This document shows positions 1-50,941 of a stretch of 64,000 nucleotides of DNA, in pieces. The stretch lies in contig OZ237737.1 of the NCBI GenBank assembly GCA_965178125.1, positions 682,001-746,000 on the forward strand, read 5' to 3'. Position numbers and translations under genes: made by a program. Each line of letters starts with the position of its first letter. The stretch's first letter is position 1. The notes beneath the pieces are model-generated. The model saw nothing but the letters and a program-made list of their open reading frames with translations. It did not search any database and was not told the origin of the DNA. The DNA is from Bilabrum cf. latius (Eukaryota).

Positions 1-3000
1 CTGGAATGGGAGTAAGACGAAATCTTCCTGCCAGCCGGCTGCAAGCATTGGTAGAAATATTACACTTGTAGGCCAGAGAGAATGCTCGGGGCTTGCAGCT
101 GCAGTTTGGTGAGATGGGGCTCACTGCTACCCGAACTCTACTGTTCTCGTCGTCGACTGAACGGGACGAGTTCGTGGCATTATTTAGCCGTCTGGTCGGA
201 GCAAAGGCCATTGCACGGCCGCTATTAAAGCTTGGCAGCGCACTCGGGGGTGCCGGGCCGGCGAGTGCCTCGAAGTCACTCGCCTCTGCGGATAGCCATG
301 CCAAGAGCGTGCAAGGCCACAGCGGGAACCACCTCGTCGCCATAGAGAACCTGTACGGCTTCCAGTGCAACCGAGTCACGCAGCTGGACACATCCAGCTG
401 CATGCTGCGCATCCTCGAGCAGCCCGCCATGGACAGCACCAAGGCGAGCGTGCTGCAGGCCCACTCCCTCTCCCGCCTGGAGCGCTTCGACGTGCACTCG
501 GTGGACCCCTGCGCCCTCGGCCTGTGCTTCCAGGGCGACAGAGCGGCCTCTAGCGCCCCTGCACAGCTGGTCATATCCTTCCGTTCGCGTGACGAGCGCG
601 ATGATTTCGTTGAGGCGCTCAAGCCCGTGGTGGACCGCTCGGGTGCCACCGGGGAGGACGGGGGTCCTCTGCTGCCCAACTACACGTGGAGGGTGCCGCT
701 GCCCGTCAGGAAGTGGTTCCGGTTTCTCGTGCATCGCAAGGCAGGGGGTAGCATGGGATCCGGGAAGGAATTCATCCTCATGTGCAGCGTGCGGCACCGG
801 ACGCTCAATTTTATCGACTCGGCCGAGCTGGCTGCGCTGGGGGGCGTGGAGGCCCATTTCATCCCGGACACGGTCAAGATCGCACAAACTATCAGCACCC
901 TGCCCGGAGCCATGCAAGTGGAGCTGGACCCGGCCAACCCTAGGCGAATTCGATTCTCGACAGACACGCCGGGCACGCCTGTAGGCGACCGGCGGTACAT
1001 TGACATTGAGCTGCCCACTGCTGGGGAGAGGCAGCGGCTCTCTGCAGTCCTAAACTCGATTGCAGCCGCGCCCACGGCAAGCAAGGACAATCAACCGTCG
1101 TCTGCCGCCAGGCTAGCCGCCCGAGACCCGGCCCCTCCAGTTGTGCCCGCCCTGTGGCATGCGGACTGGCCGCACGACGAGGTGGGCGTGTATGTGGGCA
1201 CGTACAACGTGTCGGGGTAGCCACCTCCTGGCCCGCGAGAGCTGCAGAAATGGATCCCATTCCCGTTCAACAAGGCCCACGACCTCTACGTCCTGGGCTT
1301 TTAGGAGATCGGATCGGCTGCCAACCGCGAGAAGTGGGGCAAGGCGCTTTTCGAGTTCTTGAATACGAACCCGAGATCCGCTGGGCTGGACCCAATGCAG
1401 ACAGAGCGGAACCGGTCGGCCACGGTGGCTGCATCAGCACACCCACTGTACGGCGACCTGTCCGGAGGTGGATCGTCTGGCGCTGGGGCAGCAGAGTAGT
1501 CCGAGTCGGCGCCAGAGCCGATCCACACCGGCGGGTATCTTCAGGTTGCCCACGCCTTTATGTGGGAGATATCTCTATGGGTGTTTGTGAGGGCACCGCA
1601 CGCCGGTGACATCTCCAACGTGCAGACGCACTACGAGCCCACGGGCCTTGCGCTCCTGAAGAACGTGACGGGGCAGCAGCTAGGCAACAAGGGTGGGCTG
1701 GGCTGCTCGCTGACGTGGAGGAGCACCCCACTGGCCTTCGTAAACTGTCATCTTGCTGCGAGACCAGAGCGCATTCCGGAGCGCGAGTCTGACTTTCGCT
1801 AGATTGTTCGGAACTTGCAGCTCAACAGCAGCATGCAGGGGTACGGGCTGGATTTTATCCATGGGCACGAGCACGTGTTTTTCTTTGGCGACATGAATTA
1901 TCGCGTGGATCTCCCATTTGCCACGGCGGTGGACTGCCACAAGCGGGGCGACTACCCGATGCTGGCCAGCAACGACCAGCTAGCCAAGCAGAAGCAGCTG
2001 AGGCGCGTACTGGATGGATTCGAGGAAGGTCAGCTTGACTTTCCACCGACGTACAGATGGCAGCGGCAATCAGACGAGTTCTCTAACAAGCGGGCGCAAG
2101 CCCCCTCCTACACGGATCGAATCACGCACAAGAGCGCGCCTGGTGTGGCTTGGTGCATCGACCGCGAGTCGTACAGAAGCGCGCACCAGCTGTATGGGTC
2201 GGACCACAGGGCCGTCTCCGCCGAGTATCAGGTGCAGCTGAGGCAGTACTACACGATCCCCGCACCCCCTCCAGTGCACTCGCTCATCCCTAGGCCGAGC
2301 TTCTTCGCGCAGTTCGACCACAACGTGTGCCCCCCTCCCGTGATCCTGCTGCAGGACCTCAGGGTGGTGGGCTACCAGGCAGCCATGGCTCCTCACGCAA
2401 TGTTCCTCTCGGTGCTCTCGCCCGTGCTTGAGGACAACCCGTACGTGACGCCGGCCATCGCAGCCGAGGGGATCTCAGACTTTCAGCGCAAGCAGCTGAA
2501 CGACCTGCTCGACACCATGCGCAAGGAGGCCAAGGCAAGGAAGGCTGCGCTCAAGGCCGCCGCCAAGAAGAGCAAGAAGGAGGCAAAGAAGGCTGGGAAG
2601 TAGCCCACCCCTAGCCTAGACTCGAGCGCGGACCCTGCTGGTGCCAGTGTGGGTGGCTCTGGCACCGACATCCGCCGCTCGCAGTCGAGCCGGCTGGCCA
2701 GCATGCAGTCGCACCCCCTCATGGTGACCTCCATGGACAGCGCGAGGGATTCCCCCCTCGACGAGCACGACAGCGACGATGAGGTGCTGCTCGAGGACGC
2801 AGAGGGTGGTGCGGGGGCACGCAAAGTGGACATCGACACGTCGAGCCTCTCGCTGGCCTGGCTCACGGAGCAGAGCGCGGGGGCGAGCGATGGTGGCGGG
2901 ATCGACCCGCACCGGCAGGGGCTGCTGGCCCTTAGCTGCGAGTACCCGATCACACCCTACGAGACGGCCCTGCCGCCCATGCGGCTGCATCTGTGGGACC

Positions 3001-6000
3001 CTCGCATCCTGCGGTCTATGCACCTGAACGTGGTCGCACAGCAGCCGCCCAAGTCCGACCTGGGTGATGCCAAGTCCAGGGTCGTGGGTCAGGCCACTCT
3101 TCCCCTGGCGCCACTCTGCGATGCAGCTGCCGATGCCGCCCTCGAGGGCCTGCAGCGGTCCATGGAGGAAGAGGACGAGGAGGGCGTGGAACTCAGCCCA
3201 GCCGAAGCTGCGGGTGCCAACCCCGCGGCCGCGCTCCAGAAAATGCAGCGGTCTCCCAGGGCAAGATCGAAGGGTTCCAGGGCCCGCCGCAGGTCCGAGA
3301 GGCACCTGAACACGTACAAGCGGCAGTTTGACAAGCATGGTATCCCCTGGGCCTTCCAGCACGAGGCTCTCCCCTTCTGTGTGGACCTGTTTCTCGAGGG
3401 GTAGCCCGTGGCGAAGCTCCACGGAAAATACTGCATGCGCGCTGCCACGGATGAGGAGGTAGCGGGGCGCCCGGGGGCGGCCTTGATCGCGTCTCACTGG
3501 AACTTTGACGACAGCATCGATGCCTTGCGACAGGCTGTGGACGGCGTGGACGGAGGAGAGCCCTCCAAGGCTGGCAAGGCTGTCGGGGCGGGAGGTGAGG
3601 AGGACTTCGATGCGTGGGAAAGCAAGGGAAGCGACGTTGAGATGGAGGACTTCGAGGCAGACGCGGCTGGGCTTCGCTACAGGCACCGGCCAGACCACCC
3701 CGCGTACGCCGGTAGCGACGACAGGGAACTGGGCGGCAGGCCCAGCTCTGACCTCGAGGGCGGCATCCCTTCGCCGCTGCGGGAGAACGGCGAAGAGCGG
3801 GCAGCGTGGGCCGCTGGGATGCGCAAGAGCGAGAGCGGCGAGTACGAGGTGAGCGAAGACAGCGTCCTGGAGATCATCGCCAAGAAGGCGGACGAGGAGG
3901 TCCAGGTGCAAGGGGGCGGCGACCTAACCGGAGGGGCTTCCTCGAGCGATGGACCTCCCATCGGCTCGCAGGTAGGCGTGCAGGAGAGGCTAGCGGCGAG
4001 GAGAAGGTCCTCGGCTCCTCCCGGCAGTGTCGTGGAGCAGTTCGCCAATAGGCACATGGCGCAGGCAGGGGAGGCCATCGCGGAGGCCGACCAGGAGACG
4101 GACTCGGAGGACGAGGAAGGGGGCAGAGAGGGAGGGGGCAGCGCTGGCACTCAGGCTGCGCCGGCACCCACCCGGAAACCAGCACCTTCTCCACCTCCGC
4201 CGCCAAAGCGACAGCCGGTGCTGCCCCCGCCGCCAGCATCGCCCCCGGCTGCAATTGCGCAGCAGGCCAAGCGCAACAGGCGCAGGCGCAGCACCATCAA
4301 CCTGCTCCAGACCTCCATGCTGCCGCACGAAATGCTCCCCGGCCCACCGTCAGAGCCCCCGCCGAGTGGAGGCCCCACCCTACCGCCGCCTCCGGTGCCC
4401 CAGCTGGCCATTGGGTCAGAGGCCAAGCCGGGTGCGTCAGCATCTTCTTCGGTCCGAGCCGATACGACTCCAGCAGCCGGCCAGTCACAGGGCACCGTGC
4501 CCCCGCCTCCCCCCGCAGGCGCATCGCAATAGCAGACCTCCAGCCCAGCCTTGGTTCAGGCAGGTGGAACGGCGGGGAGTGCAAGCGATGCAGCGGCAGC
4601 AGCAGTACCCGTCATGCCGGCAGCCCGCGCACCTCGCTCTGCCCTCCCGAGCCTGGCATCCCTGCGCAAGCAGACCCAGGCTGCGGCAGCCGCAGAGGCG
4701 ACGCAGCAATCCAGGCGAGTGTCGGCATTCGCGGTGTCGGCCATCAAGATCGTCCAGCCTTAGAAGCCCAAGCTCGGTGCGGCTGCGAGCCTGGCTCCCG
4801 CTGGCAACGGGTGGGGCGGAAGCACCAGCAGCGGTGGGTCCACGCTCACGCACCTAAACGGCGCCGCGGGGATGCTGCGGAACCAGGGCAGGGTGACCGG
4901 CGCGCTCCGAGCGAATGCAGGCCAGTCCAGGCCACCCCCTCCCCCTCCGCCGGTGGACACGTCCGGCTCCAGCGTGGCGTCGAGCACCAGCACGCAGCGG
5001 TTCGCACTGCGGCCCAAGCTCAGGGGCTTCGAGTCCAGCGATGACCGGGCCTCGCTGGGAGGAGGCACGCCGACTGGGATGGGCGGGGCAGGGGGCATGC
5101 AAGGGGCCAGGGCTGGCGTTGCGTCCAGCGGTGCGGGGACCGGAGGAGGAGCCGGCTCCACCGGTGGGGAAGGCATCGCCAAGGGGTCTCGGTCCCGGGT
5201 GCAGGCAGGGGCCGTGATCGGATCGTCGGCGGTGGTCAAAACGGCAGCGAAGCCGCTGGCCCCCGGCAGCAAGGGCATCGCTGCTGCCAGGGCGCCTGTT
5301 GTCTCGGCGCCCGCTGGCATGGGTGTCCGCACGCAGGCCGCAGACGGGCTGCAGGCAGGTGGCAGCGAGTCGCCGCTTGGGGGCAAAGGCAAAGGTAAAG
5401 GCAAGAGCAAGGGAAAGGGAAAGGGGAAAGGAAAGGCAATAAGGGAGGGCAAGGGTGCAGACGGAGGCAAGACACCCACGGAAACCGGCCCCAAGACGAC
5501 CAAGAAGCAGCCCATGCCCAAGGAAACCGGCCCCAAGACGACCAAGAAGCAGCCCATGCCCAAGGAAACCGGCCCCAAGACGACCAAGAAGCAGCCCATG
5601 CCCAAGGAAACCGGCCCCTAGACGACCAAGAAGCAGCCCATGCCCAAGGAAACCGGCCCCAAGACGACCAAGAAGCAGCCCATGCCGAAGGAAAAGCAGC
5701 CCGCTCCTGGGGCTGCTGGCCTGGCGTCCGGTGAAAGCAAGGGTGTGGGAACTTCCCTGCAAACAAAGCCGAAGCTCAAGCCGAAGCTTAAGGCGGCTGC
5801 CGGCGCAGGAACTCCCAAGCCCGCGGCAGGTGACCGGCAGCCTCCCCCTCCGCCCCCAGCTGGTGCCGGTGGTGCAGGTAGTGGCGTAAGCTCCGGGCAA
5901 TCGTAGAAGCCAGCAGCTCCGAGGGGGCTAGCAGGCTCCGCAGCGGCAGCGCCTGCACCTGCGTCTGGCTCGCAGTCCGGCCGCGTCGTGATTGTGTCTT

Positions 6001-6035
6001 CGAGCAAGCCCAAGGCCCCGCGCCCTGGCAAATGA
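1..6035 (+). CDS. Inositol polyphosphate 5-phosphatase with long Pro/Ala/Lys-rich C-terminus (5' end probably outside window); TAG read as Gln
   Basis: Same-frame ORFs 93..1220, 1560..1802, 1815..2603, 2649..3404, 3408..4532, 4551..4763, 4872..5621 and 5640..5906 are separated only by TAG. Motifs: GTYNV, DLYVLGF(TAG)EIG, GNKGG, FVNCHLAA, FFGDMNYR, DQL, PTY, PSYTDRI, SDHRAV. First TGA at 6033-6035. Confidence 0.9.
5481..5690 (+). repeat. Coding minisatellite: 5 copies of a 42-bp unit (ETGPKTTKKQPMPK)
   Basis: Near-identical units start at 5481, 5523, 5565, 5607 and 5649. Copy 4 has TAG in place of AAG at 5619-5621. Confidence 0.95.
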
Positions 6036-9390: not shown

Positions 9391-12300
9391 TCAAACACCT
9401 GCAGCGGTGCGGCGGCGCTTGCTCGCCGGCGTCCCATTGCGGCTTCCGGCCTCCCTAGCCCCGATCTGCGATGAGCCCTTGCGCGAACCAGGCTTTCCGC
9501 TTCCTGCCCTTGACTCAGTGTCGACAGAGTCACTTGCCTCGTTCGGTGGCGTTTTCGTGGGCGTGTCGGGGTCCAGTTCCGGTTTGGGATTCGACGCAGA
9601 CACTTGCCTGGACCGCTTTGAGCCGAGCGCCTCTGTCGCATCGCTAGCCTAGCTTGCCACCTCTACAGCTGTAGACGCACTGCTGCTGCTACTGCTAGCC
9701 CCGCCTGCGACGTTGCCGTTGTCAGCGAAAGGTGCCACCAGCGCAGATGCCGGCGCCATCCCCATCACCCTGGCAGTGTGTGCCCGCGCCAGCTCCTGAG
9801 TGGCGGGGTCCTCGAGCCGCATCGATGCGCCCGCCTTAGTTGTGCCTCCAGGGAGCCCGTCCACGCTGACGTGAGCGGCGCGCTGCAGACCCGCGGACCT
9901 GAGCGCCGCCTCCACCACGGTGCTGATCTGGGCCTTGGCAGAGTAGGCCCCGCGGAGCCCGTCCACGATGGGCACCCCGATACCAAACTGAGGCAGGGCA
10001 TCCGGCCGGCGCAGGTCATCCACTGCCTCCTTCACGAACGACTCGAGTAGGTCATCCTGCCCCCCTCCAGCGCCGTACACGCCTCCCCCCGAGCCCATCA
10101 TCGCACCGGACTGAGCCTGGGAGCGGGACTGCGCCCTGTCTCGCAGCAGGGCCTGCACGCACAGCCACCTTACCTCGCACCTGTCGCGCTCGGCCTCGCT
10201 GGCAAACAGAGGCGCCTGCTCGCTGTCGGCAGCACTGCTCGCTGCAGCCTGCGATGCCGCCGATTTGGCGCCCCGCTTGCCCTTGGGTCGGCCCGGGGAG
10301 CGCTTGGGCGCGGGGGCCGCCGCACCGGCGCCCGCGGCAGGCTCCAGCTGAGCGATCCTTCGCTGCATCCGGTCCAACAGAAGGGTCATCTGGTCCATCA
10401 CGCGCTGGTTTCCTTGCAAAATCACCGCTAGCCGCTACGCGTTATCCTCTGCGGCAGCCATGCCCGCATCAGACCGGAGCTTGGCAGTCCTCAGCTGGTC
10501 CACAGCCTCGAGGGCAGCAGCGGCCCGCTTCCTCTGCTCGCTGAGCCGAGCATACTGGGCGAGCTCGGCCTGCCTCTGCTGCTCGATGAGCGTGAGCTTG
10601 CTCCTGAGCTCGTTGCATTCCCGGTTCTTGGCCGTGTAGTTGGTGTGTGCCGTGTCGTACTGCGCCTTGGCCCGCTGCACCTGCTCCTGGGAAGCGGCCA
10701 GCTTGGTCTCCACCGCAACCACCTTGCCCTTCTCCTCTTGCAGGAGGGTGGACAGCTCGGTCACCCTCGCGGCCTTGGTCTTGGCGGACTGCTGCGCCTT
10801 GCTCAGCTCCCGATTCACGGCATCTTGCTGCTGTGCGCGTGCCTGCATGCCAGGCATCCTCATGTTGAGGGCGTCCAGCTGCTGCTGCAAGCGGCGGTTC
10901 CTGGCATGCAGCTGGTCCACGATGCGCTCGTGCTCGCTCCTGGCGATCACGCCGCCCAAGAACTTCCCGCTGCTGCTCGATGCGGACGACGAGGCGGCCT
11001 ATGGAGCGGCACCGGACGAGCCCCCCGAGCTCGATTTCTCAAACCAGGGCTGCAGACCAGACCCACCGGAGCCTGCCCCTGAGCTGGCGGCGGGACCCGG
11101 GGCCGGCCGTAACGCCCCCGACGAGGCTGACGCGCCGTGTGCCCCTGTCCCAGACCTAGAGTCGTCCCCGGTGTCGTCACTGAGGTCCACCACGCGCCCC
11201 TCACCAGCGGCACCTCCCAAGTCACCACCACCACCGAGATACCCGGCAGCTAGCCCACGCCCGTTCTCCAGGGCCTCCAGAGGTTCCGTCTGCTCGAACT
11301 TCTTGTCCACGATGTCCTGGGCCACTTGCTCCAGCACTGTCACGGCGCCGCCACCGCTGGACCGGCGGCGGCCCCCGGTGCTGACTCGGCTCACGATGGT
11401 GCTGTTGCCCTGCGATGGCGAGCGAAATAAAGCGTTTCCAGCATGGCATAGTGACGCTGCGACGAGATTCGATGAGCGGATCAAACACTGCACGGCTGGC
11501 TGGGAACGCATCAAGCCGAGCTACTCACGCTGTCCTTCCGTGTGACCACCACCTCGATCGAGCTGGCTAGCTGCAGCATCATGCGGACGTCCTTCGCGTC
11601 CGCCGCGATGTGCAGGGCCGTGCGCCTCTGCTCCATCTCGGACTGGTTCGGCTTGGCCCCGTGGTGCAGCAGATGGGCGACTGCCTCGTACTTGCGCGTG
11701 CTGGCGGCGTGCAGCAAGGCGGTGCGCTGGGCATCGGGAGTGGCGGGGATCTGCGGGCGTGGGAGGAGCGGATGGGAGAGCGCTGCAGTGCAATACACAC
11801 GAGACGGGATACATTCACACAGGATCACCCCGCGCTGGGACCAAAATCTGGGTGCTCACAGTTTCGTAGTCGTTGATGTCGACCCCATTGCGGATGGCCG
11901 ACTCGATGAACGTGGCATGCACGCCGGGTCTGTGGTCTTTCGGGGCACGCGCGCACATCTCATGCAGCGCATTTCTGGACGCGGCCAGCTTCTGCCCACC
12001 GTACTACACGGTGCAGGGACACATGAGGCAGGCATTCGCACCCTCCTGCATCAGCTCGATGGCCAGCTCCACCTGGCCCATCGACGCGGTGTGGAACAGG
12101 AGCGTGCAGCCGTGCTGCGAAACGGAGGAGCAAGCGCAGCATGCGTGGATCCGGTTATTACAAGCTGGCATTGTGGGAACGCTGGAGCGTGGTGGGACAG
12201 GTTTTGGGAGCTTGCTCGGGCAGGCCACGGTTTGCTGCCTCACATCATCTCTGGCATCAATGTCGATCCCAGCGTTCCGCAGCATACCGCACACACGGCG

Positions 12301-12956
12301 GGCCTTCTCGCGATCTCTGCGGCTGTTGCGCGGGAATCGGAGGATCTGGTGCGCGACAGTGCTGTAGTCGAGTCGCTGGTGAACTCCTTGGCCCAGCAAA
12401 TACTTCACGCAGCCCTCTGCCAGGCTGCCAACCGCCTGGTCGAGCGGAGTTTCATCCCCGATCCGAGATGTTGATGTTAGGCTGGCTCCCCTGCTCGCTA
12501 GCAGCTCCATCATTTCCACATGATCGAACGCTGTGCATGTATGAATTGCCTGGAGTCCAAATTTGGCTTCCCCGGCGTTGATATCAGCACCATTGTCCAA
12601 CAGGGCCTCAGCAGACCTCAGCCAATTATGTTGTGCTGCCAGCGTCAGCAGTGTGTGTCCATGTATCTGCGAAATAGTAGTTCGGCGATGCGAGTAACTC
12701 TTGATTCACAAAACTGCTTTCATGACGTCCCATACTTGTGCGATCTTCCATGCGTGTGCCCCGTAATAGTTTGAATACAACATGTGTTCTGAATTGGCAG
12801 TCATTGTGGTGCAATGATTCTCACAAAATTCGCATGTGGCGAGTTTACATCCTTCATTTCCTGTGCGTCAGCCTTGGCCAGCAGCTCTCTGATTCTATCG
12901 ACTTTCTGCTCTTTGACAGCTTCATATAGTTTCTTTACGAAAGGGGGTACCGGCAT
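9391..12956 (-). CDS. Ankyrin-repeat plus coiled-coil protein, 5 exons
   Basis: Ankyrin motifs LLDNGADIN, ETPLDQAV, RTALHIAA; coiled coil at 10435-10959. Predicted introns 12667-12824, 12115-12243, 11751-11859, 11410-11528. In-frame TAGs at 12004, 10999, 10435, 9649; TGA at 9391. Confidence 0.75.
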
Positions 12957-13097
12957 TTAGATGATTCTATCGCAACAACTGCCTCTGCTGCCAACACAAG
13001 CCAGTTTTGAAATTTTATTTGTAGCGTTTGGAATTGCCTGAGGGAGAGATAAACCAGAAGCTCCCCAAGAAGCACAAAGTGTAGCCTACTTGAACTC

Positions 13098-14063
13098 ATG
13101 GCGCGACGGTTGCAGCGGTCTATAGCTAAAAGTTTGGTGAAAATATGCTCCACTCGTATGCCTACTGGGAGCACCCGGATTGGCTCAGATATTTCGTTTC
13201 GATAGATTGCGTCGAGTGCGCCAGCGAGTGCAAGCGATTTCGCTGCGCCGCTGCCGTCCATCCGCTTGAATGACCTAAGAGATAACGAGGGAGCGAAGGG
13301 AAGGGTGAGAATTGTTCTGGGGGGCCTGCTACATACAACCTGTGCCTGCTACTGCCTCTCATTGTCTCCTTCTTGATGTTTTGGAGCTCAGGTTAAGCGA
13401 AAGGGCCGCGGAAGAGGCGGTGGCCTCGGGAAAACCTCAACTAGGGGCCACAAGGGATAGAAAGCCCGCCAAGGAGGATCAGTCAGGATAGGATTCGAGG
13501 GCGGGTAGACTCCGCTGTACAGGAAGCTGCCAAAGTACGGCTTCAACCGAAAGCGCTTGCAGACACCAATGAACGAGCTGAATTTGGGTAGACTTTAGTT
13601 GTTCATCGACTAGGGACGCATCGATACGTCTACGCTGATCGATGTGCGCACCTTGCACGAATCGAATGTCTGCGGGCGCGTGAAGCATGGGGTTGCCCTG
13701 CTGGGCAAGCACGCCGAGCACTTTGACGCAAAGGTCCGAATTCATGTAACAAAGGCCTCACAGACAGCGATTCGCAGGATTGAGGAGCTCGGTGGGGAAA
13801 TACGGTGCGTTTACATGAATGCAACGGCCCTGCGCGCCCACTTGCATCCGCACAGGTTCCACCCTGCCCTCGTGCCGCGGAGCGCCCGACCACCCCCGCG
13901 CCTGATGCCATACTATACCAATTGGGAGAAGCGGGGGTATTTGTCGGCGGAAGCTCAGCTGGAGGATGTGAGGAAGCGCATTGAGCGTGGTGAGCACGGC
14001 CTTTCGCCGTATGAGGCTGCCTTGCAGCGGGAGAAGCAGTCGGACGAGACCGCCGCGCTGTAA
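13098..14063 (+). CDS. MRPL15: Mitochondrial large-subunit ribosomal protein uL15m
   Basis: Arg/Ser-rich presequence, then LNDLRDNEGA, intron 13305-13391, then KRKGRGRGGGLGKTSTRGHKG(TAG)KAR...GFEGG(TAG)TPLYRKLPKYGF...LGRL(TAG)LFID(TAG)GRID and YYTNWEKRGYL. Ends TAA at 14061-14063. Confidence 0.95.
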
Positions 14064-14307
14064 AGATGGCAAGGGAGTGATTGTAGTATGCAAAGAACAT
14101 AAAGTCAACCATGTGCTTCCGTTTGGGGTCTCTGTGTGATCACCTGCCCACCCTGATCCGGATCCTCGGGTGCAGTGCATGGCATTATTATTGGTCCGTC
14201 TATTGGTCCGTCTAGTCTGCTGCCAACACCCGGATTACGCGCGAATTGCAAGAAAGCACAGTTCTGCTGCATCAAAATCGTCCAGTTAGCCTCGGCACGG
14301 GGGAGAT

Positions 14308-15697
14308 ATGAACTACTAGCTTGGCGCGTAGTTAACCCCCGAATTTCAGGACCTGGTGCAAAGAAAACGGCTGGTTCCAACGAAAGGTCCTGGCAAGAGA
14401 CAACATGTACCTCCGAAGCTTCCGTCTAGCACTGCTGAATCGGGCAAGGATGAAACTCCAGAATCTAGACGGCAAAAGGCTCGCGGCTTCAGGGCAGCGG
14501 CTGCTGTGGTAGCGGACGATATCAGGCGGACTTCATCTAGGCTCACAGAGCTCACCAGGTGTAAGTTTCGTTTGTCAAATCTAGTTTGTACTGCAATGGT
14601 CTTGCGCCTCTCACTCTTGATTTAAGTTGTCTTCTGTTCTTGACTTCGCAGTGGCCCGGCGGCCGGCTCTAGATTCGCGTACTCAATCTAGGATTGATAT
14701 GCTAGCCGGAGCTATCAAGGCTGATTTGACTAGGGTAGGCTCGACGCTGGACACTTTGGAGGAGGAAGCGGAGATGGCAAGGCAGTCGCCAAGACCTGGC
14801 GATCGAGCCGGGAGCGCAGGCGCTTCCGCTGCTGGCGGCGTCCAGGTGTCTGCCCACGGCCGAGCCATCGTCGGCTCGCTGCGGCAAGCCCTCCTCGGAG
14901 CTACTTCAGATTTTAGCGGGGTGCTGCAGAACCACACGCAGGCGATGCAGACTGCCTCTGAGCGGAGGGCCCGACTTGGTGTGGGTCTGCGTGGGGGCGT
15001 AGGCGGCCGGCCGATGGGGGCGTTTGCCGGCCGTCGAAAGTCGGATGGGCCCGGGCGGCAGGGGCAGGGTTAGGATCAGGGTACAGGGGGGAGCCACTCC
15101 CTTTTATCTTCCTCTTCGCTGGGCGGCGGGGGCCCGGAGTCGGCAGGAGGCAGGCGATTTGGGGAGAGGGAGAGAGCAGGCAACGGGGGCAAGGGGAGCG
15201 ACAGGAGCGGGGGCGGTGGCGGTGGCGGTGGCGATGTGCGGGCCAGTCTGCTGGGGGCAGGCTCCTTACGGGTTGTGGGAGCGAGCAATACTGGGCGTAT
15301 GGGAGGCACTCCTACTCCTCGCAGTGCGGTGCCAGACCTAGAGGGGGGCAGCGGGGCTCCCGACTTCGCGCCTCTGTCGCAGCAGGAGCTGCAAATGGTC
15401 GACCGGCAGAGGGGCGGCGAGGTTGCAACCGCTCGCGCAGACGCGGTGGAGGGTGTGCAGAGGCACGTGCAGGAACTCTCCGGGATGTTCCATCGACTGA
15501 GCACGCTGATCGCGCAGCAGAGCGAGCAGGTGGAGAGGATAGAGACGGACGTGGGGACTGCAGTGGAGAGGATTGACATGGGGAGGAGGGACATAGAGCA
15601 GGCCCACGAGGCGGAGCATGATAGCACCTGGTTGCTGGCGAGGGTGGGGACTGTGGTGCTGGGCTTCGCGGCCGCGTACGTTGTGTTCCTCGCGTGA
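14308..15697 (+). CDS. Qa-SNARE, syntaxin-5/Sed5-like
   Basis: N-terminal LTPEF and Habc-like helices (FRAAAAVVADDIRRTSSRLTELTRLARR across intron 14561-14651). SNARE motif VEGVQRHVQELSGMFHRLSTLIAQQSEQVERIE and a C-terminal TM helix. Ends TGA; 3 in-frame TAGs. Confidence 0.8.
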
Positions 15698-15923
15698 GCT
15701 GGGCCTGGGCCTGGCATGCTTTGTTTGCCTCCTGCCAGTGGGGCGCGAGCATGGTGTGGACCGGGCGAAGAATACAGGGTATTATTATTGTGTTGGCAAA
15801 CATATCGTCCTATCTGTTCAATGGCTGCAGCATTCGTCCAAGCCCGAAGGCGCTGGCACCACCACCCCATGCAGGCGAAGGGAGGCACTGTGTACGTCTG
15901 AACATGTGCTCCGTCCTTCATGC

Positions 15924-16852
15924 TCATGCGTCGATCACGCGAGCATTCGATACGGCAGTGCCGCTCACAGCCCCGCGGACCCTCTTGAGCCAGGTGACGT
16001 ACTCGAGCTGCTCCTTCTTCTCGGCGGCGTCCCTCACGCCGTCGATGAATTCGAACGAGATGCCCAAGTCGTCCAGGTACTTGGCGAAGCTGCCCTGCAG
16101 GCCAGTGTCCAGCTCGGAGAAATCGCTGGGCAGGTACGTGTCGTCCTTCTCAGCGTCGTCCATGGTCTGGCCCTTGCCCAAAACCAGCACGTGGTTGATC
16201 TCAGGGCCCACCCCTTCCTCTTCCATGGGCAGCAAGACGGCAAACATGAGCTTGTCGGACTGGCCCGTTCGCTCCACGTCCACGGTGGCGTGCAGAGCCT
16301 GCACGCCAGATTCTTCCTCCTCTTCCTCCTCATCCGCCTGGTATGTCTCGGGGTTGCAGCAATCCACCTTGACTGTCACAGTTCTGTCCCCGACGACTCG
16401 TGTGAACTTCATCGTGGAGGATCCGGGCATAACATCAACCTCAAAGCCTGGCATGGCATCCTTGCACAAGCTGGTCAGTTCGTCCACAGTCACAAGTCCG
16501 CCGATTCCATCCTCGCCGCTTTGGGCCTGCGATACGGTCAGTACTTGATGCAAATCGAAGCGAGTTTCAGGGCTTCTTCTGCGATATCCGATTGGCAAGG
16601 CCGACTCGAATACAGGCTCACTTCTTCGTAGGCAATTTCACTTTCTACTGCATGCTCCAGTTCAGCAGGCGGCTGCTCCTCTTCTTCCATGCTTGCCGCG
16701 GCCCGAACAGGAGCCGACATTGACAAGTGGCGGAAAGCACCTGCTTGAGCAACCGGCAGCATGCCCTTCATGACAGACTGGCGACACATAGCCCCACCCC
16801 TCACAGCAATACTTCTGATAACCCGCATACCAGCACACCTGATAGCTGCCAT
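15924..16852 (-). CDS. Mitochondrial acidic glycoprotein MAM33/C1QBP family
   Basis: Presequence MAAIRCAGMRV, LEHAVESEIAYEE, intron 16527-16621, C-terminal FSELDTGLQGSFAKYLDDLGI...KEQLEYVTWL. Ends TGA. Confidence 0.88.
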
Positions 16853-17012
16853 ATCAAAATTCAGTAGAACGTGAGCAGAATACCGACCTGCCCTGTGCTC
16901 CGCCTTTTGTTGCGAGTACTTTTGAGCGTCCAGAGTTTCCGTTGCACCAAACTCTGAACGACCACTGGAACAGCGCTTGCTGCGCGTCGCAGCTTTTGGA
17001 TAGTCAAATATA

Positions 17013-17600
17013 ATGGTATGTTCATGTGCTGCTGGTCACGGACCCATACAGTAGCTTCTCCGTTACGCGTCTCTACTCCTGAATCGCTCCATCTCTTTTT
17101 GTCACTTATGCAGAGCGCAATAGAAGAGGCAATCAAGCGTATTGAGCACTCCAAAAATGTGCAAGCATTTGTAATCGTCGATGATAAGGGTAATGTGCTA
17201 CGCCACAGGAGAGACATGTCGGAGGCGACAGCCAAATCTTTGGCATCAGCTCTGTGGAAGCTTACCTCCAGGGCCTAGCATACCGTCCGAGACATTGATC
17301 CCACGGATAGATTAAACTTCTTTCGCTTGAGAATGGAAAAAATTGAAGTTCTTGTAGCTCCGGGTGAGACAAACAAGTAGCTCGTGGCGTGCCATCGAGC
17401 GCCGCCCAGCCGGGAATTCAAGTCTCAACTTGAGGAATGGTCGTGTATCGTTCGAACGCGTTCGTCTGTGTCATGTAGGCACCACTCAGATCACACAACC
17501 CTCACATGTGTCTCGTGCCTCTTCGCTCATCGCAGGTCCGGGGTACATGGTGATAGTGTCGTAGGAGTGGACTCCGGCAGCCTGGGCGCAGGAGTCTTGA
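17013..17600 (+). CDS. DYNLRB: Dynein light chain, roadblock/LC7 type
   Basis: IEEAIKRIEHSKNVQAFVIVDDKG...RA(TAG)HTVRDIDPTDRLNFFRLRMEKIEVLVAPGPGYMVIVS(TAG)E. Introns 17016-17113 (probable) and 17364-17535; TGA at 17598-17600. Confidence 0.88.
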
Positions 17601-18789
17601 CCTGATAATTGAAGGATATGATGATAGTCTTGAAACGTCAATGCGTGCATCATTTTCAGCATCACAGTCAATTGTTGATACCCAATGCAGTCGATTCACG
17701 AGACTTGCCAGCAGGCGTTTTGGTTCGATGCGTTGCCGCGTCCAATTAAACTGCTGAATGTAAGTTGTCCTTCTGATGGAGCCATTCCAGCCACCTTTCA
17801 ACCCTTTGACCATATCTGGATACGAATCTATCAAACCGGTTAACTATTTACGATATCGTTGTACGCTTGTGTGTAGCTGTACGGATCACAATTGCATGGA
17901 AGAAGCTCACGCAGGCGGGTAGGTAGTCCTGCTCCAATAATGATATTGTCATTGATTTCGGTTTTTGAGAAGGGCAGGTCAAGCTGACATTGATTCTGAA
18001 TCTACCACGTATCTGGTCCAGGGTGACATGTTCATACAATGGATATTTAATTACGCGACAAAACTTTTGTCGTACAATACGAGCTAGTGTTCAGATAAAT
18101 CATGTAGACCTAAAACTCCTAGAAAAGTCTCAGTCAGGGTACGCTGGAAGAGCTGACTAAATGAGTGAATATCCTGCAAGCTGATCAAGCCTCATGCTTG
18201 TAGTGGGGCATTGTGGCGGAAGCTCAGTACCCGTTGGCAACATCAATATCGCTGTGCCCATCATCGCACTCGCTCCCACGAACATGACACAGTGGGACAA
18301 CTCAAAATCGATGCCACTGCAGAGGTGGGGTACACCATGGGTCCTCTGATCCGCAGCAACTTCTCGTGAACCTAAACTACAGATCAGATTTCTTCCTTCG
18401 ACCACACCAATTGGCTCGTCTTCACGGCTACTGCAATCCCCATTGGTTTGCAGTTACCAATAGGAAAATTCCTGCCCCCGGTAACGAGGACTCACTGGGC
18501 TTCAACCCGAACGACTGGTTCTTCACCAGCCCACCTGAATTCCGTATTCCTCTTACACTACCAATGAACACACCACTTTCCCAATACACGTCAACTTGTC
18601 TCGTCGCTACTTGCCACTTCAGTCAGCCCAGTGCGCGAAGTACCCAGGCGACACTCGAATATGTAGATTGAGCCAAGCAAGTAGACAGACACAATTTCCT
18701 CTCGTCGCAGCAGTAGCACTGCAAGCGAAGACATTGTTGGATGGAAGCGCAGGAAGCGACCTAAACAAGGTCTACAAGAGCACTGAGTC

Positions 18790-19290
18790 AGGCGCGAAGG
18801 GAACCGAAAAGCGTCGACTGAGATGTATGTGTGCACAAGTGTATATGTCCATATCCCTACTAGCTGACTAGTTGAGAGGTGGCATAAATGAGGAATTCAA
18901 TCGCCGCAGGCGCTATTGGCACCAAGCCGCAGTCAAAAACCACTCCTTGAATCCTCAGGGCGTCAAGTTTGCGCACATAAGATTCACGTTGCATAGCAAG
19001 CGCTGATTCTTCTTCCTCTACTTGAGTGCGCATCGCTGCGATCTGTTGTTCACACTCAATTCAATTTCTCTCGACTTGAGATTTACATTCCTTCCTGCAA
19101 GCATTCAGAGCCTATGCAGCCTTGCATCAAGTTGTGAATCAAAAGATGGTTACACCTAGAAAAGATGTTAAGCGTGAAGACTTCACAATAAACATGTATA
19201 TGTACACAAATTTAAAGTCCATATCTTGCAGCATTTTTGTTTTCCTTTCATCTAATCCATTTTCTCAAATCGTTCTTTTTATTCTCTTAA
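18790..19290 (-). pseudogene. Possible decayed coiled-coil gene fragment in AT-rich island
   Basis: Protein-like stretch ALNACRKECKSQVERN*IECEQQIAAMRTQVEEEESALAMQRESYVRKLDALR is broken by TGA at 19061-19063. No long ORF even with TAG as Gln. Confidence 0.25.
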
Positions 19291-19829
19291 GGAAGGAATA
19301 CGAACTGCGTATCTACCAACGTAGTGAAAAAGCGGAGGTAACACATTGAGTGCCACTCAATAACCGTTTCCAGCGTATCGTTGTTAGCCTACCTGCAAAG
19401 TTATCTACTACTTTATTTCTTTTGATCGGTTCGAACCCGATGAAGACGGATAATCTAGTATCATCCCTAAATATTGCTGATTGTTAGTGTGCTGCAAGTA
19501 TATAATTTAACAAATATCCAAGCGACTGGTACAAATTTAACTCTGGACGAGTTGGGAGCTAGAAAGATTTGATTGTATTTGTAGTCAATTAGAGCGCGTG
19601 GATTGTGTTGAGTCCGTTACCAACATAATCAAGTAGATGTCATTATAGTATTCTGAACATCTCTATTACTAGTCAGCACTAGTGAAACTTGAATACTCGG
19701 CGAATCACAAGAAAATTAATCAAAACCGCTGTTGTCATTAGCCATTTGAATTTATGAAATAATTGCCAACAGAGTATCGTTAACACTTCATCATTGTACC
19801 TACGCTAGTAACGGAGGCCGTCAAGTAAT

Positions 19830-20903
19830 TTAGTCAACAACGGCAAGCGCGGCGAGACCTGCTGCAATTGCATTCTTTGCAGTTTCATGGATAGAGTCTA
19901 CGTGCATGTGAGAGCTCTGGCCCGTGTGGCCCATTGCCTCAGTCTTCTCATGCATGACTTGGTCCACATGGCCCATAGCTTCAATTTCACCCTCTCTTTC
20001 CGCTAAAGCTCGTTCGAGCATGTGCACGTCGCGTTCCTTCTGGCGCAAAATGTGATTTCGCAGCTCGACTTGAGTTGTACGTGACTTGAGAAGCTATTCC
20101 AGCTTTGAAATTCGGGCTTGTTGTTCTTCAAGCTGCCGTCTCAATTCAGACATTGCGGCGTTGTGGCGGGCCTGCACGCCTGGGGGAGTTCGGATGAGAA
20201 CAGTGCCTGGGCTCACAAAGCCTGGGTCTCGTTGCCGCGGTCGAGAAACCCGGGGACTTTCCAGGTGCAACAACCTGCTTCTTGATACTGAGCTATCGAT
20301 CTGAGAGCGTCTCAGCTGATCTTCTAAAGCGCGCAGTTTGGCCCGCAATTTGTTGCACCGCGAACAGGTGATCTTACTTCCACGCTGTGGACCCTGAGAA
20401 TCACGAAGTCCATCTGCATTGCTGGCAGCAGGAACGACAGAAACGAACCTCTCCACTGGACGATCAGGCAACAGCGTCGCACTGGAGCGATTTACACTTC
20501 CTTTAGCGCACGCCTTTGCTGCGATGGCACCTCTGGCACCATCCGCCAGGGCATCCGCTGCCACCAGCTCCCCGGAACAAGAATCCATCGCTGCACCGTC
20601 AAGCTACACCTCGTCACGAAAACTACCATCTGGTGAGGTCGAAATTGCCTCAGTCTGACGTTCTGTCTCGGTCGAATGGCATGTTTCCCTTTCCCTTGGT
20701 GCTGTGCTTGTCGCTCGCCCGGGATGACCTGACTTCGTAGAAAGCTGAGAGTTCGGGCGCTTAGCTAGTTGCTCATCCTTGTGCGCACCACTGTCCAGCT
20801 TATGCTGCACTTGAGTTTGAATTCCCCCCTATTTGCCTTTCTGAACGCCCATGGACTCCCTCAGTCGGGCAAGGGACTGGTAAAGATCACCAACGGCGGC
20901 CAT
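19830..20903 (-). CDS. Hypothetical coiled-coil protein (~357 aa)
   Basis: Same-frame ORFs joined by TAG at 20829, 20604 and 20094; ATG 20903; ends TAA at 19830. Coiled-coil segments such as ELRRQLEEQQARISKLE. Confidence 0.65.
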
Positions 20904-21687: not shown

Positions 21688-24600
21688 TCAGTTCTCTTGC
21701 ACATCGCGCATGGCGGTGCGCCGCCTGCCGGTGCGCCGCGCGGCCTTGAGAGCCGGAATGCCGGACTCTCCGTCGCCCTCTGCAGCAGCCGAAGCTCCTG
21801 TGCCCGATCTGGAGGAGGCCCTGCCCCTGCTACGGCCCCCCCTCGAGCGAGACCGGTCCCTCGCCCTACCGCTCGCGCTCGCCGCAGCCACCGCCGCCTT
21901 GCTCGTGGCCTTGCCGCGCCCTGCAGCGGGGCCCGCGGTCTTTCGACTCCGACTTCCAGAGGCGGCTACCTTGCCCCTGCTCGCCCTACCTGACCCGGAC
22001 CCGGACCTACCGCTGGACCGCACCGAGCTGCCCGATCCCGAGGATGCCTCCGAGCCGGCGGGGGATGCATCGCTCGACCCACCAGACCCAGACCCAGACG
22101 GCGTGCTGGCGGCACCGGGCGATGCCTCCTCCCCCTGCTCCTGCCCCTTGTCTTTGGCCACGTCTATGAGAGACGCCAGCGAGCTGGTGGACTGTCCACG
22201 GCCCATGCCGCGAGACACCCTCGACGTGCTGCCGCCGCCCGTCACGGAGCCGGCACCCTCGGAGGGGGAGGGACTGCCAGCCCTGCCAGCAGCCTCCTCT
22301 TGCTCCTCCTCGCCTTCCTGCTCCAAGCCTGCATCAGTTCCAGCTCCAGCTCCAACCAACGCCTCATCGTCCTAGCCGGTGCCGGTGCCGGTGCTTTTCC
22401 CATCCACCGCTTCTTGCGCACCGCAAGTCTCAGGGATTGCGGGCGGCGCCACCGCGCCCACAGGCTCGGGGGCCGTGGCGCTGATCGCCGCGTTCTCACC
22501 AGCCTCAGACCAAAGCCCAGACCCCTCCACCTTCACCTCCTCCGTGGCGCCTGCAGCCGCCGCCGCCCTCGCCTCCTGGCTCCGGGCCAGGGAGGGGGTC
22601 ACGGCCGCGCCTGCCTCGCGCCTGGCGCGCACACGGGCCAGCACGCGCCCGTCGGGCGAGGCCGCCGCGAGCCTCGAGGGAACAAGCGCGGCCCGCTTGG
22701 CCGGCGTGGTGCCAGTGGGCGGCTGCAGCGCTGCCTGCCTCCGCGCGAACCTCTCCGACTCCTCCCCGTGAGCCGCGGCCCACTCCGCCACCCGGGCGCC
22801 GAAGGGCTCCGCGTGCTCGTTCAGCTCCCGGGCCACCCTCTCCGACGCAGCGTCCCAGTCTCCCTGCAGCGACGACACGGCCTCCCCGGCCGCATCCTTG
22901 GCCGCGGCGTCCCCGGCCTCCGCGGCGGCCCTCAGCCCCGCGCACGCCTCGTCCACCTCGGCGCGCAGCTCCTGGGCGGCGCCGCGACCAGCGGCTCCGG
23001 CTGCCTCCGCGGCCTTGCTCTGCTCCGGCACCCATTCCTGCGCGACCTGCGCCACAATCCCGTCCATCGCCCCTGCCTCCTTGGCCGCCAGCTCGGCCTC
23101 CCTGCCCGCCGCCGCCTCGCAGCCCGCCAGCGCCTCGGCCACCGCCCCCGCGCCCTCCCGCAGCCCCTGCGCCTGCCGCTGCCCGAACTCCTCCGCCGCC
23201 TGCTCGGCCTTGTCCCGCCCGCGCGCCACGGCTCGGCCCGCTGCCTCGATGCTCCCCGTGGCCCGCCCCGCTGCCGCCTCGCACTGCTGCACACTCTCCC
23301 TGTCTGCCTCCGCCTGCCTGCCCATGCCCTCGTCCAGCAGCTTCGCAAGCCCGGCCACGATCTGCTCCCGCGCCTCCTTGGCTGCGAGCGCCCTGGCGTC
23401 CGCGGCCTCCCTGCCCGCCCGCAGCGACTGCGCCACGGCCTCTTTGGCCCGGGCCAGCTCCGACTCGGCCTCCTGCGCCGCCGCCGCCAGCGCCGCGCTA
23501 TGCTCGTTCACGAACGTGTCGGCTCGCTCGGCCTCCTGCTCCAGCAGCTCCCGCGAGGCTCGGGCCCAGGCAGACTCCGCCGCCGCCCGCTCCTCCCGGG
23601 CCGTGGCAGCCGCCGCCCGGGCCTCCTTGGCTGCCGCGCCCGCGTCCTCGGCTGCCTTGCGGAGGGCCTGCAGCGCCCGCGCCTGACCCTCGGCCAGATC
23701 AGACCACCCCTGGCTCGTCCGCTCGCACGCCGCCGCGACCGACTCGGCTAGCCGCCCCGCCCGCTCCGCCGCCTCCGCCGCAGCCTCGCCGGCGCGGTCC
23801 GCGATCCCGCTCGCGTGCTTGCAGGCCCGCTCCCGGGCCCTTCCCGCAGTTGCTTGTGCCTCCCTGGCGCGCTCCGCGGCGCCGCTGCGGAACTTATCGG
23901 CGTCCCGAATGAGTGCCTGCAGCCGCAGGGCCACGCTCGCGCGGTGCTGCCCCGCATCGCTGGCCATGCGCGACCGTTCCGCGTCCCGGCGGGCGATCTT
24001 GGCGCGCAGCCCCGCGCCCTCCGCCGCCCCCATGCGCACCTCCCCCACCAGGGCCTCCGCCTGCGCCCTCAGGTCGTCTCCCGTGCCCCGGTGCGCCTCC
24101 AGCAGCACCCCCGTCTCTTCGCACCGCTCCCTGGCCTGTCCCAGCTCCTCGGTGCGCTCGGCCAGCTCGCCCCTGGTGCCCTCCAGCGCCTCCGAGGTGG
24201 TGGCCAGCTCGGCCCTCACCTCCTCCAGGAGATCGTTGCACCGCTCCAGCTCTGCCTTGAGCCCGTTGATCTCGTCCTCGGCGCCCGCGTGCACCTCCTT
24301 GAGCTCCTCCAGCTGGGCCTGGGCGCTGTCCCTCGCGTTCTGAAGGGCCTCGAACTCGGCGAGGGGCAGGTGCACCCCATCCTTGGACCTGGCCGCCATG
24401 AGCATCGTCTGCAGGTGGTCGATGCGGGTGCTAAAGTCGGTCAGCAGCTGCCGCTTGGTCATGCGCTGGTTGGCCTCGGGCCTGTTCTTGATGCTGCGGG
24501 CCCGGCTGGCGTAGTCCAGCGTTGACAGGGTCTCGTCCAGCGAGCCGGCACACGGGGACAGCGTCGCGATGATGGTGGTCTTGGTCTTGCCGCCGAGCGA

Positions 24601-25917
24601 GTCCCGCAAGAGGCGCGTCAGCTTGGAGTCCCTGTAGGGCACGTGGCCCTGCTTCTCCACCAGCGAGGTGATGACCCGACCGAGGGTCAGCAGGCTCTGG
24701 TTGATGTTGCCCGCCTCCCTCAGCCTCTTGTCCTTGGCCCCGCTCCGGCCCACGCTCTCCGACCCGGCGAGGTCCACCAGGTGCAGCTTGCCCACCCGCA
24801 GCAGGTCCTCGCCCTCCACCGTCTTCTCCTTGGAGTGCGTCATGATGGTGAACACACCGTGCGAGCGGGAGGAAAAAGCGTTGCACTTGGTCTCTGCCAC
24901 CTGCCTCTTCTTGAGGGCCCTGCCCAGGTGCTCGAACACCTCCTCCGAGTTGTGCACCAGCTTCTCCTCGAGGTTCTGCACCACCACCACGCCCTTCTTG
25001 GCGTCCTCCACCAGCTTGAGGCGCTCAGCGGGGCGCTTGGCCTTGCGCGACATGTGGGGGTTGTACCCCGACCGGCCCGCCCCTCCCGCCGAGCTGCCCG
25101 CGGCGATGGGCTCGTCGGGTATGTCGTCCTGTCCCGCGGCCAGGAGGTCCGTCAGCTGCTCGTTGTACAGCTCCAGGTAGGAGATGCGCACGCTGTACTC
25201 GAATTGCCCGGCACCCTCGCCCTCGGACTTTGCCCGGCTCTCCAGGTGCTCGAAGATCGCGTTGATGCTCCTCGGGATGATGCCGGCGTTGGCCGAATCC
25301 GCAAGGTCGCCCTCCATCGTGAAGGTCTTGCCAGTACCAGTCTGGCCGTACTGCGTCGGAAGGAAAGACAAGAACATCATTCATGGAAAACTTGCTGTGG
25401 ATTGTATTCTATAGCCTTTGCGCAGACTACAGGCTCCAAGAAAAGCTCACCGCAAAGACAGTGGCGCTGTAGCCTTGCAGCACCTCGTCAATGGTCGGCT
25501 TCACGCACTCCTTAAAAATCTCCTCCTGCTTTGTGTACTGCCCGTACACTTGATCATACGCATACTGTTTTGTGAGCTTTGGGCCGGCGGCTGCTCCGCC
25601 AGTAGCCGCGCCACCAGCACCGGACGACGGGCGAACACCACCTATCTAGTTGCGAACGGTGACATTCTTCTTGCCACAGGTCACAATGACCGGCTCAGAC
25701 CGGGCAGCCTCCTATTTGTTCTATGGTCTGCGAAAAAGCAAGCTGCCTTGTATCGTTTGCTGGGTCGCTTGTGGTCGATCTACGTGATCTGCACCTCCCC
25801 GCGAAGCTGCTCAAGATCTCCGTGCAGCAAAACTCGAACTTCGACTCACCTACAACGAACGACGACACGAACTGGTACAGTGGTATCACCTGATCCCTTT
25901 GCAGAGGAATCACTCAT
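21688..25917 (-). CDS. Kinesin-5 (BimC/Eg5/KIF11-like) motor protein
   Basis: VRVVVRCRP, YGQTGTGKTFTMEG, SSRSH, LVDLAGSE, EAGNINQSLLTLGRVI, HVPYRDSKLTRLL, ARSKDGVHLP and a BimC-box-like PTGTTPAKR. Introns 25728-25849 and 25351-25450. TAGs at 25721, 25712, 25586, 22372; TGA at 21688. Confidence 0.92.
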
Positions 25918-29237: not shown

Positions 29238-29523
29238 GGCAAAGCATACGGTATTTGGTCTCTTCAGCGCCTACGGTGACGTTTTGCATCAGAACGCCCA
29301 AATTTCATAACTTACAGCATTTTGTTCTGCTACATTCGGAGAAGAGGCTCCACAGCCCATTGCTGGTTGGGTAGTGCGCGCAGTTGCCCTTAGTGCGCGT
29401 CGGCGGCTTAATTCGAACGCAACAAAAATGTGGGCCAAAATAAATCAGAGCTATCCACAAGGGAGTACAACCGCCGTATCTATAAACCTACGGCTATTTT
29501 GTGGTGAATTGGTACGCATTCAA

Positions 29524-44122: not shown

Positions 44123-44236
44123 TCCTTGATACACGCAATTGTAGCATCAGCAAAAATTCAAACCCGATTGTCCCAAAAGTGCACGCTATTTATCTCGAAA
44201 CCGACCTAACCCAAGACAAAGATCCAGCTTGCCAGC

Positions 44237-50200: not shown

Positions 50201-50941
50201 CTCGCACCCGTGCTGTACGTGGCCAATGCGGGTGACTGCCGCGCGGTGCTTTCGCGTGCAGGCCGTGCCATTGACCTGAGCGAGGACCACAAGCCCTCCC
50301 TCCCAGAGGAGAAGGCGAGGATCGAGGCCGCGGGAGGGTGGGTGCATAACGGCAGGCTGCATGGCGTGCTGGGAGTCGCAAGGGCGTTCGGAGACGCTGA
50401 GCACAAGCACCTGAAGGAAAAATCGTGGGGCAAAGAATTCAAATCGGACCCACTGGTGGCGGACCCGGACGTGCACGTGGAGGCTGTGGGGCCTCGAGAT
50501 GAGTTTTTGATCCTGGCATGTGACGGGCTGTGGGACGTCATGGGCAGCCAGTAGGCCGTCAACTACGTGCGTTAGGCTGTCCGGAAGCATCACGACCTGC
50601 AGGAAGCAGCAGCGGGCCTTGTCTCTAAGGCCATCGGCATGAACTCGGCCGACAACGTGTCGGTGATCGTGGTTGCCTTCAACCAGAGGTGGTGCGCCAA
50701 GGGAGTGTTCCAGAGCCGCTCCATGGGCTCAAGCCTAGCTCTCGTTGAGGACGCTTCCGCTCTAGACGCGGCAGCCGCGGCCCCTCGGCAGGAAGAAGCA
50801 GGGACGGTAGCTGCCAGTGGTGGGGCGGGCACCGTGGCTTCTTCGGCGGGAGGGGCCGTGTCTGGGGACATGCTGGGAGGCGATTCCGATTCGGATTCAG
50901 ATGACGATGACGATGATGGAGACGCCCTGGAGGAGTGGTGA
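44237..50941 (+). CDS. cNMP-binding domain + CAMKK-like Ser/Thr kinase + PP2C phosphatase fusion (~2234 aa)
   Basis: cNMP: IVKQGSEGDSFFIIVEG, HFGEFSLL..QPRVASV. Kinase: LGQGSFGTV, VAIK, HRDIKPSN, DFG, GTPAYMAPE. PP2C: GKRSTMED, GVYDGHNG, ANAGDCRAV, DHKP, LACDGLWD, SADNVSV. One frame with 11 TAGs; TGA at 50939-50941. Confidence 0.88.

Follow-up and report, generated by a model that had tools for sequence, protein, structure and literature searches.

The plus-strand locus at 13098-14063 of the 64-kb window (the whole stretch of DNA that was analysed) raises the question of how TAG and TAA are read in this genome, since under the standard code the frame of its uL15m gene is broken five times. 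The initial annotation had claimed that this locus alone shows UAG to be glutamine together with UAA as a stop; the first part of this claim holds at the locus, while the second is better shown by window-wide counts than by the locus alone.

The gene runs from the ATG at 13098 to the TAA at 14061-14063 on the plus strand and comprises two exons that encode a 292-codon precursor. The 5' leader of its transcript (13084-13097) is drawn from the starts of the RNA-like contigs of runs X6 and X7 (13084 and 13085), contig ends being rough guides only to the ends of transcripts. The coding part of exon 1 (13098-13304, 69 codons) was obtained by translation, with its end set by the joint in the RNA-like contigs. 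Its product begins with an Arg-rich N-terminal leader, presumed to be a mitochondrial presequence, and continues with the conserved LNDLRDNEGAKGR; the final 25 residues share 84% identity with those of the metagenome contig L001, the relative described below. An intron of 87 nt with GT..AG borders (13305-13391) follows; one X6 contig and one X7 contig lack it, and the DNA contigs from X1 and X5 retain it. The coding part of exon 2 (13392-14060, 223 codons) carries the uL15 core and a mitochondrial-type C-terminal extension; its first base, 13392, coincides with the start given in the initial annotation. The reading frame is closed only by the TAA at 14061-14063, where the initial annotation had also ended it, and GC3 is 0.76 before this point but 0.36 after it. 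A 3' UTR of about 46 nt (14064-14109), containing a second in-frame TAA at 14100-14102, leads to the position at which the contigs stop (14109).

The identification of the product as uL15m, made in the initial annotation, is borne out by the Pfam profile check, in which the L15/L18e/L27A domain (PF00828) matched with an E-value of 8.4e-16 and 58.6 bits (cut-off 21.5). A search of the exon 2 protein against the chains of solved structures returned 71 distinct chains at E <= 0.001, with mitochondrial uL15m on top: yeast 3j6b_J (E 5e-37, query 2-201 on chain 75-279), followed among others by the chains from Arabidopsis (3e-35), Tetrahymena (2e-34) and human (3e-33). The non-mitochondrial chains were weaker, at about 1e-20 to 6e-23 for bacterial uL15 and 5e-15 for plastid uL15c. 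Judged by these matches, 13098-14063 is a nuclear gene for the mitochondrial ribosomal protein uL15m. Alignment with yeast MRPL10 and mammalian MRPL15 extends over the GHKGQ and FEGGQ motifs, the core of L15 and the C-terminal extension, and the protein differs from known uL15m only in its Gln codons, a lineage-specific leader and the C-terminal tail.

Translated in a single frame, 13092-14066 yields a uL15-like protein in which TAG is the sole interruption. Five in-frame TAGs are present in the gene, one in exon 1 and four in exon 2 (codons 23, 39, 69 and 74 of exon 2). The three TAGs listed in the initial annotation are among them, but the list was incomplete, as those at 13203 and 13611 are also in frame. 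The exon 1 TAG (13203-13205, codon 36 in the translation) falls in the variable leader. For exon 2, columns of homologues were obtained by aligning the protein with the best 120 of the 7,411 matches passing E 1e-10. The TAGs at 13458-13460 (GHKG-TAG-KAR) and 13506-13508 (GFEGG-TAG-TPL) had been placed at highly conserved glutamines, and Q indeed occupies these columns of the GHKGQ and FEGGQTP motifs in 115 and 119 of the 120 homologues. The TAG at 13596-13598, noted in LGRL-TAG-LFID, is likewise in frame at the glutamine of L(G)RLQLFID (Q in 116 of 120). The fourth, at 13611-13613, occupies the variable position of FID-Q-GRID, at which homologues have M in 95 cases and Q in 5 of 120. A Q content of 90% or more is reached in just 4 of the 223 columns, and at these the window has TAG three times and CAG once. 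The occurrence of three of the four exon 2 TAGs in such columns has a hypergeometric probability of 8.7e-6, to which the building of the alignment with Q already at the TAG sites may have given slight help, though the flanking motifs are near-invariant. In the structure-chain alignments, the first three exon 2 TAGs stand opposite the Q of yeast GQKGQKAR, FEGGQTP and RIQWF.

Contigs from four public runs carry the uL15m stretch, with no differing letters. In X6 and X7, which belong to two studies, one contig each of about 939 nt joins 13084/13085-13303 to 13391-14109 with the intron absent, and both runs also show canonical joints in the flanking genes, at 12667-12824 (minus strand) and 14561-14651. 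None of the three joints occurs in the DNA-like runs X1 and X5. X6 and X7 were typed as RNA by a software guess, no run being recorded as RNA, and they are treated here as cDNA because the three canonical spliced joints are missing from the DNA runs. The uL15m mRNA is spliced with all five TAGs kept. The initial annotation had envisaged a copy left untranscribed beside an intact CAG/CAA paralogue; as regards transcription, the X6 and X7 contigs show that this copy gives a spliced transcript in which the TAGs are intact. Runs X1-X8, filed under four different organism labels in four studies, contain near-identical copies of the stretch, and runs labelled as 'protist' and 'algae' metagenomes hold small shares of it.

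The minus-strand neighbour (11815-12935) is an ankyrin-repeat-like gene with a 158-nt intron (12667-12824) in the RNA-like contigs and an in-frame TAG at 12006. On the other side, a syntaxin/t-SNARE-like gene (14230-15697, plus strand) has SNARE-like heptads and a hydrophobic tail, both judged by eye, and a 91-nt intron (14561-14651) in the RNA-like contigs; its ORF at 14621-15697 gave no Pfam match passing 0.001.

A single close relative, L001, was found among the 31 metagenome loci returned. This contig of 4,005 bp (GC 0.53) is collinear over positions 1-4005 with about 11.5-15.1 kb of the window and carries the same coiled-coil ORF, ankyrin-repeat gene, uL15m and syntaxin-like gene, the gene order being kept despite the saturation of synonymous sites. 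The L001 uL15m protein is 86% identical to that of the window. At the four exon 2 TAG sites L001 has, in order, CAA, CAA, TAG and CAG, and its exon 1 leader bears an in-frame TAG of its own. In the neighbouring genes, in-frame TAGs of L001 stand opposite CAT, GAG and GAG in the window, and the window TAG at 12006 stands opposite AAC; these non-Gln pairings are single conservative replacements, which would be compatible with glutamine without proving it. As read from the aligned codons, TAG is a sense codon shared by the two lineages, swapping with CAA and CAG.

Over 215 aligned uL15m codons the two sequences have 78 identical, 109 synonymously different and 28 non-synonymous codons. The resulting pN of 0.094 against a pS of 0.80, which is saturated, indicates strongly purifying selection on uL15m over a long divergence. 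The L001 gene ends at TGA, at a similar distance past the conserved ALQRE, and was deposited as a 138-residue protein fragment that starts after its last TAG. The other 30 loci have CAA or CAG at GHKGQ in 30 of 30 cases and at FEGGQ in 20, the motif being unmatched in 10. All 31 were found with patterns back-translated using standard Gln codons; because such patterns could not find TAG users, the 30 CAA/CAG loci are no evidence on the spread of the code.

The use of TAG as a sense codon extends over the whole window. With TAG read as sense, the window contains ORFs of 2,511, 2,243, 2,010, 1,788, 1,285, 1,230, 1,143 and 1,114 codons. The 16 long ORFs together (17,524 codons) have 100 TAG, no TAA and no TGA in frame, while their off-frames contain 128 and 123 TAG, 50 and 60 TAA, and 272 and 346 TGA. 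Pfam domains were found in 12 of 16 ORFs scanned, a list that overlaps with the one used for the counts but is not identical with it, as exon 2 of uL15m replaces the domain-less ORF 15510-16748 in the latter. The domains include inositol 5-phosphatase, DHTKD1-type E1, kinesin, PPR, MPN/JAB and a cNMP-binding-kinase-PP2C fusion, and further UFD1/zinc fingers, DAO and Rpn8. In-frame codons number 100 TAG, 536 CAG and 168 CAA, which makes TAG about 12% of the Gln-type codons, although the counts take in some non-coding parts of stop-to-stop ORFs. TAG is frequent in frame in practically all genes of the window. Its reading as glutamine thus holds across the entire window, and the uL15m locus is one instance of it and not a local oddity.

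Among the long ORFs, that at 44210-50941 (plus strand, 2,243 codons) combines cyclic-nucleotide-binding and protein kinase domains with a C-terminal PP2C phosphatase and contains 11 in-frame TAGs, and the ORF at 29311-36846 (plus strand, 2,511 codons) has PPR repeats only near its C-terminus (about 2199-2322), with no Pfam match elsewhere in the ORF.

The observations are very probably explained by a functional, expressed uL15m gene in a nuclear genome whose code has UAG as glutamine and UAA and UGA as stops. We take this code to be NCBI table 15. Under it, the five UAGs of the uL15m mRNA would be translated as glutamine, so that the invariant glutamines of GHKGQ, FEGGQTP and LQ-FID would be made normally, and translation would stop at the UAA at 14061. 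By analogy with the mechanism treated in PMC5304391 (section 9), UAG would be decoded by a tRNA-Gln with the anticodon CUA, which could not pair with UAA and which a single anticodon substitution in tRNA-Gln(CUG) would have produced. An eRF1 that has lost efficient recognition of UAG would be expected alongside, and glutaminyl-tRNA synthetase (GlnRS) would have to accept the CUA anticodon. ARAGORN and Rfam searches found no tRNA or other RNA gene within the 64-kb window, and the eRF1 gene is absent from it.

The meaning of TAA separates this code from one of the table-6 type, in which UAA and UAG would both be glutamine, UGA would be the only stop and in-frame TAA would be rare through GC-richness. 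UAA and UAG usually change together, according to PMC11687900, and a predominance of TGA is evident in the window: it terminates 13 of the 16 long ORFs, with TAA terminating 3, and TAA is the rarest stop triplet (175 and 191 per strand). Since ORFs bounded by TAA cannot test TAA, ORFs were re-derived with TGA as the sole stop. Nine gene ORFs keep their exact bounds under this rule, and their 9,991 codons contain 58 TAG but no TAA, against about 18-25 TAA expected if it were glutamine (on the ratios CAA/CAG of 168/536 = 0.31 and off-frame TAA/TAG of 110/251 = 0.44). In four other gene ORFs TAA occurs only at the 5' edge (codons 150 of 2,661, 39 of 2,282 and 126 of 698) or at the 3' edge (codon 1,144 of 1,289); internal TAAs are present in antisense and off-frame ORFs. 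Nine segments conserved between the window and L001 likewise have no in-frame TAA in either sequence.

The ends of the genes also argue against a sense reading of TAA. GC3 falls across all three TAA ends, from 0.72 to 0.58 and from 0.54 to 0.26 in the two besides uL15m. The uL15m contigs of the two studies end 46 nt past the TAA, short of the next in-frame TGA, which lies 31 codons downstream; the second in-frame TAA is 13 codons downstream of the first, and the contigs of the next gene begin at 14230 and 14232. A code with both UAA and UAG as glutamine is therefore improbable. On the combined evidence the function of TAA as a stop is well supported for the 64-kb window, though its terminators of this kind are few (three) and the contig ends add a weak hint.

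There is a similarly small chance that UAG is ambiguous, being glutamine inside genes and a stop for some genes by context or position. Context- or position-dependent reading of stop codons is known from Condylostoma and Blastocrithidia. Reading TAG through everywhere would hide any genes that truly end at TAG, and uL15m is the one gene whose end was compared with poly(A) data. However, TAG is not depleted ahead of the TGA and TAA terminators, with 6 found against 4.6 expected in the last 50 codons and 3 against 1.8 in the last 20, and the base following TAG (+4) resembles that following CAG. The DHTKD1 gene has a TAG 12 codons ahead of its TGA, and the alignment with the human homologue continues beyond this TAG. 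There is no hint of a position-dependent dual meaning of TAG.

A sense reading of UAG as some residue other than Gln, such as Glu, Lys, Leu or Tyr, is very unlikely, though several sites outside the conserved uL15m motifs pair TAG with other residues. Besides the pairings with GAG, CAT and AAC between L001 and the window, TAG faces AAG in a 42-nt coding tandem repeat (5475-5694, 5.2 copies, 97% matches) towards the C-terminus of the 2,010-codon inositol 5-phosphatase ORF, where one copy has TAG at 5619-5621 and four others have AAG, the ORF continuing to the TGA at 6033-6035. E-rich columns occur as well: the four TAG columns of DHTKD1, among 120 homologues, are H/R/E, a gap, T/S/A, and Q 67/E 45, of which only the last is Q-rich. 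In PDB alignments made with TAG as X, the 5-phosphatase and PP2C TAG sites shown face V, D, E and S, and the GF-x-E TAG site is unaligned in the top three matches, so that these alignments carry no information on the amino acid. Outside uL15m, the majority of TAG sites within conserved domains are at variable positions, which would be compatible with glutamine without proving it. Against another amino acid stand the three uL15m TAGs in columns that are 96-99% Q and the CAA or CAG that the relative has at three of the four sites.

The view that the TAGs are true stops or errors, arising from a pseudogene, an assembly error or RNA editing to CAG, has a negligible chance: the five breaks under the standard code speak for it, but the same letters occur in four runs, the spliced RNA-like contigs keep TAG, purifying selection relative to L001 is strong, and the 16 long ORFs combine 100 in-frame TAGs with no TAA, TGA or frameshift.

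With UAG read as glutamine and UAA and UGA as stops, the question becomes which lineage uses this code. The window has a GC content of 0.61 and its genes are long and intron-poor. The best 120 uL15m matches include 28 rows with an organism name, 27 of them stramenopiles and 1 a fungus; the named matches are led by oomycetes at 53-55% identity, followed by pelagophytes, diatoms and a thraustochytrid. For DHTKD1, the best named matches are Aphanomyces and Cafeteria (44%). In a maximum-likelihood tree of 121 DHTKD1 rows, a quick analysis of a single gene with a long window branch, the window, Cafeteria roenbergensis and three unnamed rows form a five-row group (SH-aLRT 96), nested in a larger group of 60 rows, among them all 26 from oomycetes (SH-aLRT 99). 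The window may thus derive from a stramenopile, possibly one near the bicosoecids, which is a lead and not a result. The aphelid Amoeboaphelidium was rejected as the source, as its DHTKD1 has 39% identity and falls among the fungi in the tree. For ciliates and Iotanema the rejection is by inference, drawn from the GC-rich genome with long ORFs and from the mitoribosomal and DHTKD1 genes.

The nearest DHTKD1 relatives have been called at full length (966-999 residues), presumably by standard-code gene calling. These relatives seemingly have no in-frame TAGs in this gene, which suggests that the change is confined to the lineage of the window and L001. Our confidence is evenly divided on whether this represents the first nuclear stop-codon reassignment in stramenopiles, maybe in a bicosoecid-related lineage, with UAG alone turned to glutamine in a GC-rich genome that uses UGA as its main stop, and with the change old and bounded. 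It would be old because the relative that shares the code is saturated at synonymous sites, and bounded because the nearest DHTKD1 relatives are full-length under the standard code. Full-text searches of a collection with few subscription journals turned up no description of an altered nuclear code in stramenopiles or bicosoecids; given this coverage and runs that date from 2025, a published or pending description may exist.

The kind of code is already known, and this may be its first case in stramenopiles. Reassignment of UAG alone to glutamine is described in PMC11687900 for Iotanema spirale, Protocruzia tuzeti and, on two occasions, phyllopharyngean ciliates; PMC5304391 likewise gives UAG as glutamine with UAA not reassigned in the fornicate Iotanema spirale. 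These lineages resemble the window in having UAG as glutamine and UAA and UGA as stops, and the same tRNA-Gln(CUA) and weakened eRF1 would be expected in them. The window differs from them in its high GC content (~0.61), its long intron-poor genes, its mitoribosome and DHTKD1 genes and its stramenopile relatives. The preferred stop differs as well: UAA is described as dominant in Iotanema and exLh (PMC5304391, section 9), whereas TGA closes 13 of the 16 ORFs in the window.

Both UAR codons are glutamine in many ciliates, ulvophyte green algae, Hexamita, the oxymonad Streblomastix and the aphelid Amoeboaphelidium, according to PMC11687900 and PMC5304391. Those codes share with the window the change from stop to glutamine and the interchange with CAA and CAG, but in the window no TAA stands in frame, and 3 of 16 ORFs end in it. 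TAG is also glutamine in crAss-like and other phages (PMC9523058), as a strategy of viruses whose hosts use the standard code; the window, in contrast, is part of a cell's nuclear genome, with introns and genes typical of eukaryotes.

Separate meanings for UAG and UAA are rare; the papers cited here name Iotanema, an uncultured rhizarian, Scotinosphaera and a small number of ciliate lineages. Codes that split the two codons bear on how eRF1 discriminates between them and on the first steps of reassignment. As this genome is GC-rich, is not that of a ciliate and has both genome and transcript data, a further independent case would allow a test of whether the capture of a stop codon by glutamine depends on AT pressure. 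If the reading is true, the uncoupling of UAG from UAA, which is rare, would have one more independent origin, and the changes in the tRNA, GlnRS and eRF1 would be directly readable, as DNA and RNA data exist. Gene calling with the standard code truncates most proteins of this genome and its relatives.

Other features of the window concern its composition. The region at 16000-20000 has a GC content of 0.45-0.52 against about 0.61 for the window and contains no long ORF even with TAG as sense. GC peaks at 0.76 in 22000-24000, where the kinesin ORF (21688-25380, minus strand) encodes a coiled-coil tail rich in Ala and Glu; this ORF has only one in-frame TAG in 1,230 codons. Within 9391-11814 (minus strand), a low-complexity stretch rich in Ala and Ser weakly matches PF25660 (filamentous dsRNA virus capsid) with 25.5 bits, below the threshold of 27, and this match is probably compositional.
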